Virus record (IMG/VR): IMGVR_UViG_2660238573_000008
DNA: 4,507 bases
Reading direction: 5' to 3' (one strand)
Source of the DNA: a virus
Lineage: Duplodnaviria; Heunggongvirae; Uroviricota; Caudoviricetes
The position numbers and the translations under genes were made by a program. The notes beneath the pieces are model-generated. The model was not told the DNA's origin. It did not search any database and saw only the letters and a program-made list of their open reading frames with translations. Positions 1 to 4,507 of the stretch are shown in pieces (position 1 is the first letter of the stretch; each line of letters opens with the position of its first letter).

Positions 1-159
1 TAGCACTGCCAGCTGAATAACACATCCCCGTCAATACGGCCCTCGCTGTACGCTTACTATTTATCAGGATTTATCGGTTTCTGAACCCTGGATATGTTTA
101 TCTGTCCCGGCCTGTTGAATCAGGCGGGGAAAAGGTAAAGACAATCAAGAGGATTATTT

Positions 160-432
160 ATGGACAATAACACCATTTCTCTACAGGAGTTGCTCGACTG
201 CATTTCAAAGCTTCGGGATGATGTAAATGCCCTCACTGTTGCATTTTCATATTTGGCCTTATCAATTCCCAGAGAACAAATGCAACCAACACTGGCATCG
301 CTCCTGCTTGAATCACGCAACCCCAAATGGTCCCAGGAACAACAAAATTCTTTCAAGTGGCTGGCGGCATTACTGGAAGAAAAATATGCTGGTAAAATTA
401 CCATTTCGGTGGAGTCTTCAGAGAATCAGTAA
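160..432 (+). CDS. Hypothetical protein, 90 aa, unknown function
   Basis: ATG at 160 preceded by AAGAGG about 8 nt upstream; stop TAA at 430-432. The translation (MDNNTISLQELLDCISKLRDDV...) has a mixed charged/hydrophobic composition that looks protein-like. I do not recognise the family. Its 3' end overlaps the ydfR-like gene by 35 bp on the opposite strand. Confidence 0.45.
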   Translation: MDNNTISLQELLDCISKLRDDVNALTVAFSYLALSIPREQMQPTLASLLLESRNPKWSQEQQNSFKWLAALLEEKYAGKITISVESSENQ

Positions 433-742
433 TTCTTCCTGGTAGCTTTCCTTTGTAGGTTATCCACACATTCTGCGCCTCTAAAATTACGGGGCGCTTT
501 TCCGGCGACTGCTCATCCCCTTCACATAACCCGGCTGCAACTTCCAGGAAGACCTGTCTGATGCTCCTTCTGGCTGCTGCCTCATAAAACTCCAGCGCGG
601 CACCTTCAACACGGTCCAGCGAGATGTCCAGGTCAAAAATTTCACCGTCAAAGCGTTTTTTGTCCCTTAATGCTACAGTTACCGCAACTTTATTCTCAAA
701 ATTGCGGATCCCTTTCACAATCAGTTCATAGTTTTGTGTCAT
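398..742 (-). CDS. ydfR: YdfR-like prophage protein, 114 aa from the ATG at 742
   Basis: Long minus-strand ORF directly downstream of the holin gene. The internal ATG at 742 is preceded by GGGGAGAG about 7 nt upstream and lies 4 nt after the essQ stop, suggesting translational coupling. The symbol rests on synteny with K-12 Qin as I recall it (essQ then ydfR), not on a verified alignment. Confidence 0.6.
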   Translation of the reverse strand: MTQNYELIVKGIRNFENKVAVTVALRDKKRFDGEIFDLDISLDRVEGAALEFYEAAARRSIRQVFLEVAAGLCEGDEQSPEKRPVILEAQNVWITYKGKLPGRITDSLKTPPKW

Positions 743-746
743 TGAA

Positions 747-962
747 TTACTCTCCCCGTGCAACCTTACGCTTGTCTTCTTTAATCTTGAAATAAAGGTT
801 TGTCAGGTACGTCAGCAAGCCAAATACCAGACTACCCAGCACACCGATTGCAGCCCACTGTGACGGAGTTACTTTATCGAGTAACTGCAATGCCCAGAAA
901 CCAGCATTACCAGCCGATGTGCCATAGGCGATACCTGTTGTTAACTTATCCATTGATTTCAT
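747..962 (-). CDS. essQ: Class II holin (pinholin), S21-like, 71 aa
   Basis: Translation [26 protein letters not shown]...[36 protein letters not shown] closely matches my recollection of phage 21 S / EssD-EssQ holins: two transmembrane segments, a charged C-terminus and an MKSM dual-start motif. RBS GGTGAGGA upstream of the ATG at 962. Confidence 0.9.
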
Positions 963-1149
963 ATCCTCACCCCGATGTACACAGATGGTGCAATATGTTT
1001 GAAAAGATCGGAGTCTATGGGGTAGTTTTTATAGCAAACGTTGTTCTCAACGGCGCTAAAAAACAGACACATTAAAAATGTGGGTAATTATTTTAAAAGA
1101 AAATCATATATTAAATAATAATACGAGATATGTTTTCATATTTAGTGTA

Positions 1150-1171
1150 CTGTATACGGCCATTTATACAG
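1150..1171. repeat. Inverted repeat CTGTATA-N8-TATACAG immediately upstream of the zinc-ribbon ORF RBS
   Basis: Read directly: CTGTATA (1150-1156), cggccatt, TATACAG (1165-1171). Could be an operator or an RNA hairpin next to the RBS; function unknown. Confidence 0.35.
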
Positions 1172-1180
1172 GAAAAGCCT

Positions 1181-1351
1181 ATGTCAGAACGTAAAGACTC
1201 AAAATCACGCCGTAATTATCTCGTTAAATGTTCCTGCCCAAACTGCACCCAAGAGTCAGAACACAGTTTTTCAAGAGTACAAAAAGGTGCCCTTTTGATC
1301 TGCCCTCATTGCAACAAAGTATTCCAGACAAATCTTAAAGCTGTAGCTTGA
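1181..1351 (+). CDS. Small zinc-ribbon protein, 56 aa, two CxxC motifs
   Basis: ATG at 1181 with AGGA 7 nt upstream; translation MSERKDSKSRRNYLVKCSCPNCTQESEHSFSRVQKGALLICPHCNKVFQTNLKAVA contains CPNC and CPHC spaced as in a zinc ribbon. A hairpin follows at 1417-1430. The ORF track's longer form from 1130 has no RBS. It may correspond to a small zinc-binding protein annotated in K-12 Qin, but I cannot verify that from memory. Confidence 0.5.
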   Translation: MSERKDSKSRRNYLVKCSCPNCTQESEHSFSRVQKGALLICPHCNKVFQTNLKAVA

Positions 1352-1410
1352 TTGATTTTATTCGTAACAAGTATTTTTTATATTTTAATAACATATTTAA
1401 AGCAGATAAT

Positions 1411-1433
1411 AAAAAACCCGCCTGAGCGGGTTT
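1411..1433. terminator. Bidirectional intrinsic terminator
   Basis: A-run (1411-1416), stem CCCGC (1417-1421), loop CTGA, stem GCGGG (1426-1430), then TTT. On the minus strand the hairpin is followed by TTTTTT, so it is stronger for leftward transcription (cspB side) than for rightward transcription from the zinc-ribbon ORF. Confidence 0.6.
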
Positions 1434-1714
1434 AATATTGTGGTACTTTTTGTGGGAGTCATCCACTTACGCACTTTGTTTTGCTATGCCAGCAGTTAGC
1501 TTCTGCTGTAAAACTATTCATGCAGCAAACCTGCACTTCACCACAATGGTTAGCATACTTTTCCTGATTAAGTTATTGCCAAATATGCTGGCCATTGTTT
1601 CATGTATTGGACCTCCTTACTCTTTATTAAAGAGATCCAATATTCACCACTCTGTCTGTATCTCCACTCAGGCATCAGCCTTCTTCGTTATCGTATACAG
1701 ACAAACTATGAATT

Positions 1715-1930
1715 TTAATCAGTAATTATGACATTTGCTGCTGCAGGACCTTTAGCACCACTCTCTACAGAGAAGGTAACCTTTTGACCTTCAAATAAGG
1801 TTCGATAATTATCATTCTGAATCGCAGAAAAATGCACAAACACATCTTTACTACCATCAACAGGAGAAATAAAGCCAAAACCTTTATCAGCGTTAAACCA
1901 TTTTACTAAACCAGTCATTTTATTTGACAT
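1715..1930 (-). CDS. cspB: Cold-shock protein CspB (CspA family), 70 aa
   Basis: Translation [71 protein letters not shown] carries the RNP1 (KGFGFI) and RNP2 (VFVHF) motifs and matches my recollection of E. coli CspB. RBS AAGGA upstream of the ATG at 1930. Confidence 0.93.
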
Positions 1931-2091
1931 TCTACATTCCTTAACTTGAGCCTTTCGGCATAAATGGCTTGTATAACAGAAACGACTTCGTACTTAATTG
2001 GAGAGACTCAAAGAAGGAATAAGTGAATAACACCTGAAATGAGAACTGCTTTAGTAAACTACTTCGTATATCGTCTGTTCTTCAAACCGAC
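1931..2091 (-). promoter_or_regulatory. Long cspB 5' leader (about 161 nt) with a cold-box-like element near its 5' end
   Basis: Minus-strand sequence GGTTTGAAGAACAGA (plus 2074-2088) resembles the cspA cold box region GGTTTGACGTACAGA. The leader length follows from the predicted promoter position; long leaders are typical of cold-inducible csp genes. Confidence 0.5.
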
Positions 2092-2097
2092 GCAATC

Positions 2098-2126
2098 ATT
2101 AACGCATAGTTGAACATATGAAGCAA
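2098..2126 (-). promoter_or_regulatory. Putative cspB sigma70 promoter
   Basis: On the minus strand: -35 TTGCTT (plus 2121-2126), 17-nt spacer, -10 GTTAAT (plus 2098-2103), with an AT-rich upstream flank. The layout resembles the cspA promoter as I recall it (TTGCAT, 17 nt, CTTAAT). Confidence 0.5.
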
Positions 2127-2230
2127 TGTTTATTTTAGACATCCAGCCATCTTCAACCCCATCAAAAAACTATAGCTTTCTTCAGGAACGTGTGTATAGT
2201 GCGCCAAGTTATCAGTATTAAGGAATTTTT

Positions 2231-2443
2231 TTGTCCCGTAAAATGACAGGAATTCTCAAAACCTTTGACGGCAAAAGCGGCAAAGGTCTTATAACCCCAT
2301 CCGATGGTCGTATCGATGTCCAGCTTCATGTTTCAGCGCTCAATCTCCGCGATGCAGAAGAAATTACCACCGGATTACGCGTGGAATTTTGCCGGATAAA
2401 TGGTCTGCGTGGACCATCAGCTGCCAATGTTTACCTTTCATGA
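2231..2443 (+). CDS. cspF: Cold-shock-like protein CspF, 70 aa, apparent TTG start
   Basis: Translation [70 protein letters not shown] matches the divergent CspF/CspH subfamily, in which the aromatic RNP1/RNP2 residues are replaced. The ORF starts at TTG 2231 with AGGA 6 nt upstream; the first ATG (2243) has no RBS at a usable distance. Confidence 0.88.
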
Positions 2444-2497
2444 GCTATATTAAAGCTTTAACTTCAAGCCCCATCGAATCAAACATGGAGAGTTTTC

Positions 2498-2587
2498 ATG
2501 AATAAACCCGTCTGTCTTGATGACTGGTTGATTGGCTTTAAAAGCTTATGCTGTACTTTGACCTTAATAGCTCTGCTAATAATATAA
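2498..2587 (+). CDS. Candidate small hydrophobic peptide, 29 aa
   Basis: ATG at 2498 with GGAG 7 nt upstream; translation [29 protein letters not shown] has a hydrophobic C-terminal half. No homology check is possible here, so this is speculative. Confidence 0.3.
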
Positions 2588-2735
2588 TAAGCAGACTCAT
2601 TGTATCTATGGACATTGTACTGGAAGAAAGCATTTTAAACATCAGGCAAAAAACAAAGTCACCCGATAAATAATAAGTAAACTAACATGAATCCCGTAAT
2701 GAGATTCAACATCTCTATTACCCTATTTAAAGCAC

Positions 2736-2760
2736 AAAAACCCGCTCATCAGCGGGTTTT
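2736..2760. terminator. Bidirectional intrinsic terminator, candidate tR' for the late promoter
   Basis: AAAAA, stem CCCGCT (2741-2746), loop CATC, stem AGCGGG (2751-2756), TTTT, with T-runs on both strands. It lies about 40-60 nt downstream of the predicted late promoter start on the minus strand. Confidence 0.65.
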
Positions 2761-2805
2761 CTACTTTTTCTTAACTTCGGGTATACAAAGCCCATCGTTG
2801 AAAAA

Positions 2806-2834
2806 ATTTTATCCATATTTTTTGAAAAATGCAA
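2806..2834 (-). promoter_or_regulatory. Near-consensus sigma70 promoter just downstream of quuQ, candidate late promoter pR'
   Basis: On the minus strand: -35 TTGCAT (plus 2829-2834), exact 17-nt spacer, -10 TAAAAT (plus 2806-2811). It sits about 30 bp after the quuQ stop and fires toward the terminator at 2736-2760 and the lysis genes. Confidence 0.55.
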
Positions 2835-2865
2835 GCATCACGTCGCCATCTTCGGCGAAAATCAC

Positions 2866-3618
2866 TTATCTCGTCACCTTTCTCAATTGTGCTTCAGCGT
2901 AAGATTCCTCCTGCCAGCACTTTGTAACCAGTTTATCAATGACATTTGCATATCCTTTATACCACTGATAATCACTCAGGTCCGGTACCAGCTTCTGGAC
3001 ATGATGCCGCGCCAGTGTGGTTGGTAAACGACTAAACCGTTTTCCATTGCAACGCCCACAAATCTTATAAACAGGTGTGCCATGAAGCCGGGTCCTTTTT
3101 TCATCCAAGACAATACCTTTACCCTTACACCCTCTGCACGCTGTGCTGACTTCTCCCTTACCATGGCAATGCTGACATAGTTCCTTCACCCACTCTTCTT
3201 TGATAACAGATTCCCCGCTTCTGGAGTGTTTCACCACTTCGCGCAATACATTATGAAATCCAGTACCAGCACAATGCTCACAACGAGCCTTACTTGCCGC
3301 AGACCTGGAATAATCAGCAAAGGCAAAATTCACAAGGTAAGGAATAATCTGTAGCCGGGTTTCTTCACTCAATTTATTCAATGTCGGGTTATCCAGTGCC
3401 ATCGCGTAATTGAGCAGACCTTCAATCGCAAACTGAGGATCCTGAACACCAACTTTTGCCAGGAATAAGGCAAACCCAAGCGGTGCTTTCGACTGCACCA
3501 TCCCCTGCGCAGCCATCACATCCGTAATCGTTAAACCACCAGAGCCTGTCGCCGGTGCGTCATCACTCAATTTTGGAGATTTTGGGGAGTAATATTTTGG
3601 TAAGGCTTCAAGGTTCAT
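2866..3618 (-). CDS. quuQ: Late-gene antitermination protein Q (phage 82 type), 250 aa
   Basis: 250-aa ORF with RBS GGAG 7 nt upstream of the ATG at 3618. The sequence carries four CxxC motifs (CEHCAGTG, CQHCHGKG, CRGCKGKG, CGRCNGKR). I recognise the N-terminal region and overall length as Q82-like antiterminator. Position directly upstream of the promoter/terminator module fits. Confidence 0.88.
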   Translation of the reverse strand: MNLEALPKYYSPKSPKLSDDAPATGSGGLTITDVMAAQGMVQSKAPLGFALFLAKVGVQDPQFAIEGLLNYAMALDNPTLNKLSEETRLQIIPYLVNFAFADYSRSAASKARCEHCAGTGFHNVLREVVKHSRSGESVIKEEWVKELCQHCHGKGEVSTACRGCKGKGIVLDEKRTRLHGTPVYKICGRCNGKRFSRLPTTLARHHVQKLVPDLSDYQWYKGYANVIDKLVTKCWQEESYAEAQLRKVTR

Positions 3619-3631
3619 GCTCGTTCTCCAC

Positions 3632-4507
3632 TTACGCCAGTACGCCTATTGCCAGCGCACGATCGATAAAACGAAATATCAGCTCCAGCTGGGAGCCATA
3701 CTTCTCTTCAAATGCCACGGTATCCGCATGCAGCTCGTCGTGATGCTTTCTGCACAAAGGCAACACAAAAAGGTCATGCGCTTTTGTACCCATTCCCCCC
3801 TGACCGTGGCCTATCAGGTGGTGGGGATCATCAGCAGGTTTTCCACAACATGCGCACGGCTGCGTCTTAACCCAGCGCGTGTACTTTTCATTAACCCAGC
3901 GGTGACGTTTTGGGCGTAACATAAAAGACTCCGGCGACTCCGGATCCACTTTCAGCGCCAGCACCTTTTTCGCCTTATCCTGGATGATGCTGGTGGCAGG
4001 AACCGAAGGCACAAGGTCACTTTCCCGGGTAACAGACGGCACAACAGGCTTCGGTAATCTCAGTGCCTTACGGGCTGCACTTTCCGGTAAGGCATCCGCC
4101 AGATCATTACGAATCAGCCACCAGCACAGTTCCGGCATTGTCACAACATGACTGTCATCAAAACCGAGATCCCGACGCACAACAGACAACACCCAGCGGG
4201 CACAGTTATCCGTTGCCATTGATTCCAGCCGTTCCGTGAACTGATCGCGCAGCTGGTTATCGCAGTGCCAGCACAGACGGATTGCGCCCGGAGCGTGTCG
4301 CATTGTTGTCATGTTCTCGCTGTGCCAGTCGGAATGAGGCCACTGGCAGCCTTTTTCACGAAGTAACCAGCTTTCAAGACATTCCACGCCACCAGCACGA
4401 CGGATCACTGCCTCATTGCGGAACACGGCCCGAACGGCAGGATCATCCGCCAGTGAACCGCCCCGGAAATCCTGGAGACTAAACTCCCTGAGAAAGAGGT
4501 AAACAGG
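3632..4507 (-). CDS. ydfU: YdfU-like prophage protein (DUF968-like), 5' end beyond the window
   Basis: The minus-strand reading frame is open from the right edge down to the TAA at 3632-3634; I translated 4427-4507 by hand and found no stop, so the GTG at 4426 used by the ORF track is probably not the true start. The C-terminal region has CACCGKPADDPHHLIGHG...CRKHHDELH, a Cys/His cluster. The stop is 13 nt before the quuQ start. Confidence 0.8.
   Translation of the reverse strand, partial: PVYLFLREFSLQDFRGGSLADDPAVRAVFRNEAVIRRAGGVECLESWLLREKGCQWPHSDWHSENMTTMRHAPGAIRLCWHCDNQLRDQFTERLESMATDNCARWVLSVVRRDLGFDDSHVVTMPELCWWLIRNDLADALPESAARKALRLPKPVVPSVTRESDLVPSVPATSIIQDKAKKVLALKVDPESPESFMLRPKRHRWVNEKYTRWVKTQPCACCGKPADDPHHLIGHGQGGMGTKAHDLFVLPLCRKHHDELHADTVAFEEKYGSQLELIFRFIDRALAIGVLA

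Follow-up and report, generated by a model that had tools for sequence, protein, structure and literature searches.

A cspB-cspF pair in a Qin-like prophage as probable exchangeable cargo between the late control region and the holin gene

The cold-shock genes cspB and cspF of the window (the whole 4,507-nucleotide stretch of DNA that was analysed) are the well-known and ordinary pair of a Qin-type lambdoid prophage of Escherichia coli. Very probably (at about 0.85) they are part of a self-contained 1.76-kb cargo cassette, which occupies a hypervariable slot between the late control module (Q, the late promoter pR' and the terminator tR') and the lysis genes and would work as outlined below. 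Positions 1-4453 are 100% identical to an annotated Qin-like prophage of E. coli 2013C-4974, and the cryptic prophage Qin of K-12 has 93.5% nucleotide identity to positions 535-3949 with an identical gene order. Insertion sequence ends bound the window at 1-57 and 4454-4507, the right-hand one truncating ydfU. Because the prophage matching the window lacks morphogenesis genes and the region is flanked by IS elements, late transcription may never take place in this prophage. That the two csp genes are chance orfs or an artefact is ruled out by their domain E-values and their 100% identity to annotated genes.

The late-gene antiterminator Q (quuQ, annotated as ydfT) is encoded on the minus strand at 2866-3618 and matches Pfam PF03589 (E = 1.5e-53). 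It had been taken for a Q82-type antiterminator, but this match, matches to lambda Q chains in the PDB (7ubm_Q, E = 1.1e-37; 4mo1_A, E = 7.3e-25) and a BLASTP alignment with lambda Q (35% identity, E = 5e-42) that is full-length except for a 48-residue insertion place it in the lambda-Q family; lambda Q chains are its sole homologues of solved structure. The insertion consists of extra CxxCxGxG zinc knuckles, and a Pfam scan of Q returned PF03589 alone, plus a DnaJ-type zinc-finger match. The late promoter expected near 2800 on the minus strand could be read from the sequence: pR' (2794-2834) has a -35 element TTGCAT (2834-2829), a 17-bp spacer and a -10 element TAAAAT (2811-2806), placing the start at approximately 2799. 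The hexamer AACGAT (2799-2794) after the start corresponds to the lambda-type -10-like pause element, the function of which is established for lambda pR'. The sequence AACGATGGG at +1 to +9 is identical to that of lambda and invariant in an alignment of pR' from lambda, SfV, 2H10 and Stx2c phage. A terminator scan identified tR' (2731-2760) as a bidirectional intrinsic terminator, with a hairpin 39-69 nt downstream of the pR' start (dG = -21.3 kcal/mol and z = -7.4 on the minus strand, -14.1 kcal/mol and z = -5.6 on the plus strand). It forms the right-hand edge of the variable slot and is predicted to act on both strands, terminating the short minus-strand transcript from pR' as well as plus-strand transcripts of cspF-ynfS.

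On the other side of the slot, the first lysis gene is essQ (747-962, minus strand). Its product, which has no similarity to lambda S, is a class II holin of the expected S21 type, matching PF04971 (E = 1.1e-33; 115.4 bits against a cut-off of 26). Next in the lysis cassette is an annotated ydfR-family gene (398-742, minus strand; DUF1327, PF07041, E = 8.9e-43). The essQ start codon lies 1837 nt from the pR' start and 1769 nt from the end of tR', in agreement with an earlier estimate of about 1.8 kb between late control and holin.

[quoted passage not shown] The cold-shock domain PF00313 (cut-off 27 bits) is matched over the full length of CspB (E = 1.1e-31, 108.9 bits) and of CspF (E = 8.4e-21, 74.1 bits), and CspB falls in PHROG 729 ("cold shock protein"). 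In a protein alignment CspB keeps the aromatic RNP1 (KGFGFI) and RNP2 (VFVHF) motifs; CspF has SGKGLI and VQLHV instead, a loss of aromatic residues that CspH and the F-like protein of phage PHB10 share. The pair is divergent across a 300-bp intergenic region (1931-2230), the control region recognized earlier, and the orientations relative to pR' agree with the earlier statement that late transcripts would be sense for cspB and antisense to cspF. The small zinc-ribbon orf reported before is ynfU (1181-1351, plus strand, annotated; PF23499, E = 2.5e-31), also antisense to late transcripts, which encodes a zinc-knuckle protein of 56 amino acids; its product has been detected in K-12 and its paired CPxC knuckles have been described (10.1101/511675). 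A fourth small cassette gene had been overlooked: ynfS (2498-2587, plus strand), between cspF and tR', is annotated in K-12 and encodes a small hydrophobic protein of 29 amino acids (PF23697, E = 3.9e-20) that has been detected there (bioRxiv 10.1101/511675). It probably shares one transcript with cspF.

The signals around these genes suggest that the cassette could be expressed autonomously. The predicted cspB promoter (2098-2150, minus strand) has the features of a sigma-70 promoter with an extended -10 element (TGcGTTAAT): an UP-like AT-rich tract at approximately 2127-2145, a -35 element TTGCTT (2126-2121), a 17-bp spacer ending in TGc and a -10 element GTTAAT (2103-2098), an arrangement that an alignment shows to be conserved in the cspG and PHB10 versions. 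The putative start, at 2091, is also where position 1 of the Rfam cspA thermoregulator model (RF01766) aligns; the model matches the minus strand from 2091 to 1652 over its positions 1-428 with 156.7 bits (E = 5e-42; gathering score 78). The 161-nt 5' untranslated region of cspB (1931-2091, minus strand) accordingly belongs to the cspA cold-thermoregulator class; it opens with a cold-box-like sequence GTCGGTTTGAAGAACAGAC and carries the box GCCGAAAGGC, and the alignment of csp pairs shows conserved blocks within it. Folded alone, it gives an uninformative minimum free energy (z = 0.11), and the evidence that counts is the covariance-model match. Scores above the RF01766 gathering threshold were also obtained for the cspB-like genes of Yokenella, Cyrano and PHB10, and no leader of this type was found for cspF. 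A putative cspF promoter (2173-2200, plus strand) consists of a -10 element TATAGT (2195-2200), invariant in an alignment of the cspF, cspH and PHB10 versions of the pair, and a weak -35 element near 2173-2178; it may be active, in which case the leader would be about 24 nt long. A second strong bidirectional intrinsic terminator was found by the terminator scan at 1406-1433, with an 8-bp stem containing five GC pairs and the tail TTTTTTATTATCT. On the minus strand (1433-1414) it has dG = -15.5 kcal/mol, z = -6.1 and a six-T tail, on the plus strand dG = -14.9 kcal/mol, and it is predicted to stop cspB transcripts ahead of essQ and ynfU transcripts in the opposite direction. This terminator and tR', both bidirectional, bracket the cassette.

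The edges of the slot were defined by a homology-block map against 14 loci. In SfV, mEp460, Ayreon, PhiR47_1 and Stx2c phages, which are approximately 96% identical to the window in Q, pR' and tR' and 86-94% identical in the holin, homology stops at 2733 and resumes at 974. The ribosome-binding site of essQ therefore lies within the shared block, and the variable slot is 975-2732 (1758 bp), holding ynfU, an RNA element 3' of cspB, cspB, cspF and ynfS in the window. Its GC content is 36.7%, versus 45.0% for 58-974 and 49.9% for 2733-4453. Between the same breakpoints SfV carries orf47 and a methylase gene; mEp460 and Ayreon carry orfs and a methylase gene; PhiR47_1 carries two orfs and four tRNA genes; and Stx2c phages carry orfs, a methylase gene, tRNA-Met, tRNA-Arg, stx2A and stx2B. 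In PhiR49_1 an OmpD porin gene precedes the same holin gene. The sequence-only reading took the holin gene to follow pR'/tR' directly in a canonical late region, but this is an idealisation, for the slot is almost never empty. Since 1.4-4 kb of cargo was found there in each relative examined, the csp genes are better described as an alternative cassette in a hypervariable slot than as an insertion into an empty site. The core of the earlier reading is supported: the genes form autonomous cargo within a late operon.

A moron, in the sense of Hendrix and Juhala, is an extra autonomous transcription unit within a phage operon. The presence or absence of the csp cassette at one site, its own promoter and terminator motifs, the RF01766 leader and the deviant GC content all support classifying it as one, as had been proposed. 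The comparison with related phages that was suggested as a check points the same way: the pair occurs in only six of the 35 phage records with this Q allele and pR' (six records representing five phages), the others having different cargo at the same breakpoints, and because it is not universal the moron reading stands.

How the promoters are used, how efficient the terminators are and whether Q drives read-through are deduced here from sequence motifs and from analogy with lambda and Stx phages. In a repressed or cryptic prophage, cspB would be transcribed from its own sigma-70 promoter, be controlled post-transcriptionally by its 161-nt cold-sensing leader, and be halted at the 1433-1414 terminator before the holin gene, while cspF-ynfS transcription would run in the opposite direction, starting at a weak promoter and ending at tR'. 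Upon induction, the geometry and the lambda and Stx-phage precedents suggest that RNA polymerase modified by Q would proceed from approximately 2799 past tR', antisense over ynfS and cspF, sense over cspB and its 3' element, then on through the 1433-1414 terminator, antisense over ynfU, into essQ. With late read-through across the slot, cspB would therefore also be a late gene, and late transcription would run against cspF, ynfS and ynfU. A strong, apparently cold-inducible promoter would lie about 1.1 kb upstream of the holin gene with one terminator alone to restrain it. Recombination in the conserved flanks, pR'/tR' on one side and the start of the holin gene on the other, would carry the cassette from phage to phage. 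A benefit to the host is suggested by studies of K-12, in which cspB and cspF are expressed from cryptic Qin, for instance in long-term stationary phase, where cspB, cspF and cspI are co-upregulated and cells lacking cspB or cspI survive less well in competition (PMC7406224).

The genome records of phages 2H10, PhiR42_1, PhiR63_1, HannyBb and Tritos carry the csp cassette. Among 5426 complete E. coli genomes, the whole arrangement from essQ to Q is present in 1604 (about 30%), compared with about 1616 records containing a csp pair of at least 90% identity. In PhiR63_1 and HannyBb two cassettes are stacked, and a copy of the 3' end of Q together with pR' stands ahead of each; a search of their extra 1.55-kb insert for tRNA genes found none, and its sole sizeable orf (94 amino acids) has no Pfam match. 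A prophage of Yokenella (L109) has a homologous csp pair between a Q of another Pfam family (PF06530) and a different holin gene. A scan of genome contigs with two exact peptide patterns, the matches of which are thus limited to Escherichia, Shigella, Yokenella and Enterobacter, found the pair outside Escherichia solely in prophages or prophage remnants.

These distributions bear on two other views of why the pair is where it is. The order Q-csp-holin might be ancestral to the lineage, with the other cargoes as later replacements and no insertion of csp genes at all. The abundance of the cassette in E. coli, its fixed internal order in 80 of 80 IMG/VR loci and the homologous pair in the equivalent slot of the distant Yokenella prophage would fit such an ancestry, which is nevertheless very improbable: the GC content of the cassette is sharply unlike that of both flanks, its edges fall on the two breakpoints that at least four unrelated cargo sets share, the Yokenella copy lies next to a different Q family and a different holin gene and has therefore moved, and the stacked cassettes with duplicated pR' are a footprint of acquisition. 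Alternatively, CspB, which is an RNA chaperone and belongs to a family with transcription-antitermination activity, might be made from the late transcript and sustain late transcription and translation in the cold, so that the csp genes serve the fitness of the phage. In part this overlaps the cargo-cassette explanation. Relative to pR', cspB is always in the sense orientation (in the window, in Yokenella L109 and in Morganella phage IME1369_01, where a csp gene directly follows Q); the same phages have a second csp gene, cspI, after Rz; in SSU5-like phage-plasmids the replication module includes a cspB-like gene that has the same cold-type 5' untranslated region; and PHROG 729 is an established phage protein family. 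Since csp genes recur after Q in unrelated phages and in the replication modules of phage-plasmids, the phage itself could profit from them. As the main account this is doubtful, given that the cassette is absent from most of the phages that share Q, pR' and holin, that a purely late gene would not need the promoter and isolating terminator of cspB, and that the cassette survives in prophage remnants unable to make phage.

Another question is whether the phage pair was captured from its host, the core cspH-cspG pair having been picked up and then having diverged into cspF-cspB. The core locus of Escherichia (cspH-cspG with ymcF-ymcE-gnsA) has the same divergent architecture of a B/G-class and an F/H-class gene, is 76-78% identical to the phage pair across both genes and the whole intergenic region, conserves the UP, -35 and -10 elements, the cold box and the cspF/H -10 element, and occurs in almost every E. 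coli as well as in other species of Escherichia; the identity and this wide occurrence would be compatible with capture. It has no Q, holin gene, ynfU, ynfS or 3' RNA element, and the 3' half of cspG with its downstream genes resembles the second cassette of the phage, cspI-ynfQ-ynfN-gnsB. The cspG gene is in fact a mosaic: its promoter and 5' untranslated region are 69% identical to those of cspB versus 40% for cspI, and its downstream region is 61% identical to that of cspI versus 33% for cspB. The gene order of the core locus follows that of two separate phage cassettes, cspF plus the 5' part of cspB, and cspI-ynfQ-ynfN-gnsB. A Qin-like late region that lost its lysis genes by deletion explains this pattern more simply than a capture split around the lysis cassette, and the pair's confinement to prophage contexts outside Escherichia in the contig scan is also at odds with capture, which is judged unlikely. 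The cspH-cspG-ymcF-ymcE-gnsA locus looks instead like a collapsed and domesticated Qin-type late region, which would have lost its lysis genes by recombination between cspB and cspI. In the literature searched, nothing was found on a prophage origin of the cspG locus.

The cassette may be more than protein cargo, for the 3' region of cspB contains an unannotated, conserved RNA element of about 165 nt (1441-1615, minus strand). RNAalifold predicts a long hairpin followed by a closing helix around three hairpins, and the covariance model built from it (CM R1) recovered copies outside its seed alignment. In the alignment 97.4% of cells are paired and 12 pairs have changed on both sides, compared with 4.7 +/- 1.5 in shuffles. 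Its conservation exceeds that of the cspB coding sequence. In 58 of 59 loci it is found 57-116 nt 3' of a cspB-like coding sequence, and it occurs with cspB-like genes carried by phages in four genomic contexts that are unrelated to one another, an intrinsic terminator usually coming next. Small proteins were considered for the same region: a plus-strand orf of 95 amino acids (1438-1725) and a minus-strand orf of 25 amino acids were rejected since both are broken by indels in other lineages, and a short opposite-strand orf (MQQxCxSS...) varies in length from 14 to 30 amino acids with changes that are radical and pair-compensatory, making an RNA likelier than a protein. An Rfam search assigned the element to no family, giving only sub-threshold, terminator-driven matches, and no description of an RNA in the cspB 3' untranslated region was found in the literature searched. 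It could be an sRNA derived from the 3' untranslated region, or act in cis on cspB mRNA stability or on read-through towards the holin gene. That it is a new phage-associated regulatory RNA and that the cspH-cspG locus is a domesticated Qin-type late region are together offered as a tentative proposal, at somewhat less than even odds.

The location of cspB and cspF in Qin is already known, since all K-12 annotations show it, and the Stx phages have made cargo downstream of Q/pR'/tR' textbook knowledge. In the literature searched nothing was found on the csp pair as a moron. What the slot contributes is a clean and quantified case in which the breakpoints, exact at 974 and 2733, have been reused by at least five unrelated cargo sets. 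The RNA structure 3' of phage-borne cspB and the collapsed-late-region view of cspH-cspG may be new, and these by-products, a candidate RNA family of phage cspB genes and a model of a prophage-derived "core" cold-shock locus, could outweigh the main finding. Three of the nine csp genes of E. coli are phage cargo, and the cold-shock papers PMC6719143 and PMC7406224 make no mention of phage.

Among known systems the closest is the cryptic prophage Qin of K-12 (essQ-ynfU-cspB-cspF-ynfS-ydfT(quuQ)-ydfU), which has the same genes, order, orientations and spacing as the window and the same pR'/tR' and terminators. It differs in its site, which is next to ydfJ, whereas the prophage of 2013C-4974, the closest complete-genome match, is next to prfC. 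The 3' end of ydfR in the window also deviates, and a 90-amino-acid orf takes the place of the K-12 sequence left of 535. Phage PHB10 and prophage remnants of Enterobacter likewise have a divergent pair of cspB-like and cspF-like genes with ynfU and the same 3' RNA element, but at approximately 67% nucleotide identity and at the integrase-proximal cargo end, where the pair adjoins umuDC and an SRAP peptidase gene outside the late operon. The classic cargo between Q/pR'/tR' and the holin gene is the stx cassette, and Stx2c-converting phages have the Q allele, pR', tR' (approximately 96% identity) and slot in common with the window. Published work on Stx phages shows that stx is boosted by Q read-through; cspB, like stx, is read in the sense direction after tR', so by analogy Q read-through should boost it too. 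The csp cargo differs from stx in comprising cold-shock genes rather than a toxin, in having half of the cassette (cspF, ynfS and ynfU) antisense to the late transcript, and in the strong autonomous signals for cold-regulated expression of cspB, with a terminator of its own. Morons of lambdoid and HK97-like phages, such as lom and bor of lambda and the nmpC/ompD porin genes after Q, also have their own promoter and terminator, a deviant composition and a patchy distribution among near-identical genomes; unlike these single-gene morons, the csp cassette has multiple genes, is bidirectional and includes a structured RNA.

Nucleotides 1-4453 of the window are 100% identical to a prophage remnant adjoining prfC in Escherichia coli 2013C-4974, and nucleotides 535-3949 are 93.5% identical to the cryptic prophage Qin of E. 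coli K-12, in which the gene order is exactly the same. The late operon is on the minus strand, and the ORF list, Pfam matches and public annotation are concordant: a ydfR family gene (DUF1327; 398-742, minus strand), essQ encoding a class II S21-type holin (747-962, minus), ynfU encoding a zinc-knuckle protein (1181-1351, plus), cspB (1715-1930, minus), cspF with a TTG start codon (2231-2443, plus), ynfS (2498-2587, plus), the Q gene ydfT/quuQ (2866-3618, minus) and ydfU (DUF968; 3632 onwards, minus). The csp pair proposed by the sequence-only reading thus exists, at exactly the coordinates given. A 90-residue ORF of unknown function (160-432, plus; PHROG 2411, E = 4.9e-57; no match in a Pfam search) overlaps the ydfR 3′ end in antisense and occupies the position of rrrQ in K-12, to which homology ends at 535.

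This copy of the prophage is a remnant: morphogenesis genes are missing, an IS66-family element lies to the left, and the window ends are IS termini. The left end (1-57) is an ISEc8-like terminus of the IS66 family, whose transposase ORF stops at window position 20 in 2013C-4974, and the right end (4454-4507) is an IS3-family inverted-repeat end (TGAACCGCCCCGG...) that interrupts ydfU. The window has the look of a contig from short reads with repeats at its borders; the right-hand IS3/ydfU junction was found in no complete genome of the collection searched.

The Q protein had been taken for the Q82 type, but QuuQ belongs to the lambda Q family. Its best solved relatives are lambda Q chains (7ubm_Q, E = 1.1e-37), and its alignment with lambda Q is full-length (35% identity, E = 5e-42) save for a 48-residue insertion (residues about 121-169) that contains extra CxxCxGxG zinc knuckles (DnaJ-type match, E = 2.6e-07) and falls outside the coverage of the solved lambda Q complexes. 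Downstream of Q on the minus strand is the late promoter pR′ (-35 TTGCAT at 2834-2829, 17-bp spacer, -10 TAAAAT at 2811-2806), with a start at about 2799, in agreement with the late transcripts from 2800 that had been proposed. The start is followed by AACGATGGG, identical to the beginning of the lambda pR′ transcript, in which AACGAT acts as a -10-like element where RNA polymerase pauses and Q is loaded. The tR′ hairpin (2760-2737, minus strand, dG = -21.3 kcal/mol, T-run to 2731) also resembles a terminator when read on the plus strand.

When homology blocks were mapped between the window and 14 related loci, ydfU-Q-pR′-tR′ was about 96% identical in SfV, mEp460, Ayreon, PhiR47_1 and an Stx2c phage, in all of which homology ends at 2733, the last base of tR′; in the phages that share the holin (mEp460, PhiR47_1, PhiR40_1, PhiR49_1 and Ayreon) it returns at 974, which is 12 bases before the start codon of essQ. 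The slot between these breakpoints is 1758 bp with 36.7% GC, versus 45.0% and 49.9% in the flanks. Its occupants elsewhere are orf47 and a DNA methylase (SfV), small ORFs and a methylase (mEp460 and Ayreon), two ORFs with tRNA-Met, -Lys, -Thr and -Gly (PhiR47_1), two ORFs, a methylase, tRNA-Met, tRNA-Arg and Shiga toxin A and B (Stx2c phage), or an OmpD porin (PhiR49_1, which has a different Q). The csp pair is present in only 6 of 35 phage records with the same Q and pR′, representing five phages (2H10, PhiR42_1, PhiR63_1, HannyBb and Tritos), so the Q-csp-holin order, whose universality would speak for ancestry rather than insertion, is not universal among relatives. The proposal that the pair was inserted between late promoter and holin thus holds as regards exchangeable cargo; insertion into an empty site does not, since no relative examined has an empty slot, and "one of several alternative cassettes" is the better wording. 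In lambda, S begins about 400 bp after tR′.

In PhiR63_1 (3851-5700 of its locus) and HannyBb (3723-5572), a further 1.55 kb separates Q from the csp cassette. Two cassettes thus stand in tandem, and ahead of each is a diverged copy of the final 58 nt of Q together with pR′, a duplication left as a footprint when a cassette was gained through recombination in this conserved flank. The extra piece contains a 94-residue ORF with a C-terminal hydrophobic tail and no match in a Pfam search. In Tritos, a 257-bp deletion (at 3397 of its locus, window 2434-2690) has taken away all of ynfS and the final 10 nt of cspF with its stop codon, but cspB is retained; maintenance of the cassette thus differs between its two halves.

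A csp pair of at least 90% identity occurs in about 1616 E. coli records and the whole essQ-to-Q arrangement in 1604 of 5426 complete E. coli genomes, and so the pair is essentially always in this context. Among IMG/VR loci retrieved with CspF, the order is alike in 80/80, except for truncation at contig ends. Other backbones carry related genes. A lambdoid prophage of Yokenella regensburgei (locus L109, 2466-10174), whose Q falls in another Pfam family (PF06530), has a KAP-family NTPase, three tRNAs, ynfU and the divergent csp pair from Q to holin, and cspI-like, ymcF-like and ynfN genes after the lysis genes; the same two cold-shock cassettes are thus found on another backbone. PHB10 (L010, 1519-7889) and an Enterobacter locus (L111, 2058-6939) carry the pair along with ynfU, ynfN and the structured RNA described below. 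This block is accompanied by an SRAP peptidase and umuDC at the prophage end nearest the integrase, and in Enterobacter it adjoins purB-hflD-mnmA, with no integrase in the fetched locus. In the SSU5-like phage-plasmids Cyrano (L116, 1961-2379) and Klebsiella pJN2-26 (L117, 1985-2400), a cspB-like gene lies between the DNA polymerase III alpha gene and recombination/SSB genes; a complete cold leader of the cspA type precedes that of Cyrano (Rfam, 187.6 bits), and that of pJN2-26 is mis-annotated as "putative portal protein". Relevance of the csp genes to the host has some support. That they benefit the phage directly in the cold is a live alternative, compatible with host benefit, and is consistent with their presence in these phage-plasmids, after the PF06530-family Q of Yokenella, and after Q in the unrelated Morganella phage IME1369_01.

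The cassette has its own signals. The predicted cspB promoter has -35 TTGCTT and TGcGTTAAT separated by a 17-bp spacer (2126-2098), with an AT-rich tract upstream, and a start at 2091 would give a 161-nt leader. Because the Rfam cspA thermoregulator model matches 2091-1652 with 156.7 bits (threshold 78), the prediction is that cspB responds to cold as cspA does, which is reportedly the case for K-12 cspB. The cspF leader would be about 24 nt, behind a poor -35 and a -10 TATAGT that does not vary among three diverged forms of the pair. The aromatic RNP1/RNP2 residues, which CspB retains, are missing from CspF. Two predicted bidirectional terminators bracket the cassette: tR′ is predicted to end cspF-ynfS transcription, and a hairpin at 1433-1414 (dG = -15.5 kcal/mol, then six T) to halt cspB before the holin gene and ynfU from the opposite side. 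The latter is probably of functional importance, since in its absence transcription from a strong cold-induced promoter would enter essQ.

Between cspB and this terminator, on the minus strand, RNAalifold and a covariance model delineate a structured RNA of about 165 nt (1441-1615), with further copies in PHB10 (4663-4826), Yokenella (5200-5368), Cyrano (1722-1882) and 50 IMG/VR loci (L119-L168). It is better conserved than the cspB coding sequence (78.6% identity to PHB10 over 1463-1560, versus 66.7%). The fold from nine sequences has a long hairpin and a closing helix around three hairpins; the covariance model built from them matched the unseeded Cyrano copy with 112 bits and 50/50 further IMG/VR loci, which had been fetched by sequence pattern. 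Across 26 distinct sequences, 97.4% of cells pair, versus 25-58% with slid partners, and two-sided changes occur in 12 pairs, versus 4.7 ± 1.5 after shuffling (0/500 shuffles reach 12). One U-G pair never varies, and the cspB-sense strand has many G-U pairs; read from the complementary strand, these would become A-C mismatches. In 58/59 loci the element is 57-116 nt past the cspB-like stop codon on the same strand, and a GC-rich intrinsic terminator follows in most lineages. Neither cspG nor cspI is followed by it, the K-12 annotation lacks it, and it matched no family in Rfam 15. That the region encodes protein is unlikely. Candidate functions are a cis-acting stability or termination element or a 3′UTR-derived sRNA.

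The K-12 core locus cspH-cspG-ymcF-ymcE-gnsA (L016, 4964-6241), compared with window 1816-2439 and locus L007 5609-6672, is colinear with two separate Qin cargo cassettes: cspH-cspG is 76-78% identical to cspF-cspB over the whole control region, and ymcF-ymcE-gnsA are homologues of the second cassette, cspI-ynfQ-ynfN-gnsB, which comes after Rz. Moreover, cspG is a mosaic, with identities to cspB and cspI of 69% and 40% in the promoter and 5′UTR, 87% and 85% in the first half of the coding sequence, 51% and 66% in the second half, and 33% and 61% downstream. Read most simply, this colinearity and mosaicism suggest that a Qin-like late region gave rise to the core locus when cspB-cspI recombination deleted its lysis genes; the opposite course is conceivable. 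F/H-class genes are divergently paired with a B/G-class gene in 18/18 cases in reference genomes, and outside Escherichia they are in prophage or prophage-remnant settings. No paper stating a prophage late-region origin was found in the literature library searched. This model and the RNA element are modest leads.

The geometry, signals and modular exchange of the cassette are legible in its sequence, and support the sequence-only reading with the corrections made here. In a lysogen or cryptic prophage, cspB and cspF-ynfS would be driven by their own signals and insulated from Q and the lysis genes. Upon induction, Q-modified polymerase from pR′ would pass tR′ and the 1433-1414 terminator, so that the late mRNA would include cspB, as it includes stx in Stx phages, while cspF, ynfS and ynfU would meet head-on antisense transcription. 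The finding of the csp genes is correct and already known, as they are annotated genes of a named prophage in a classic cargo site.
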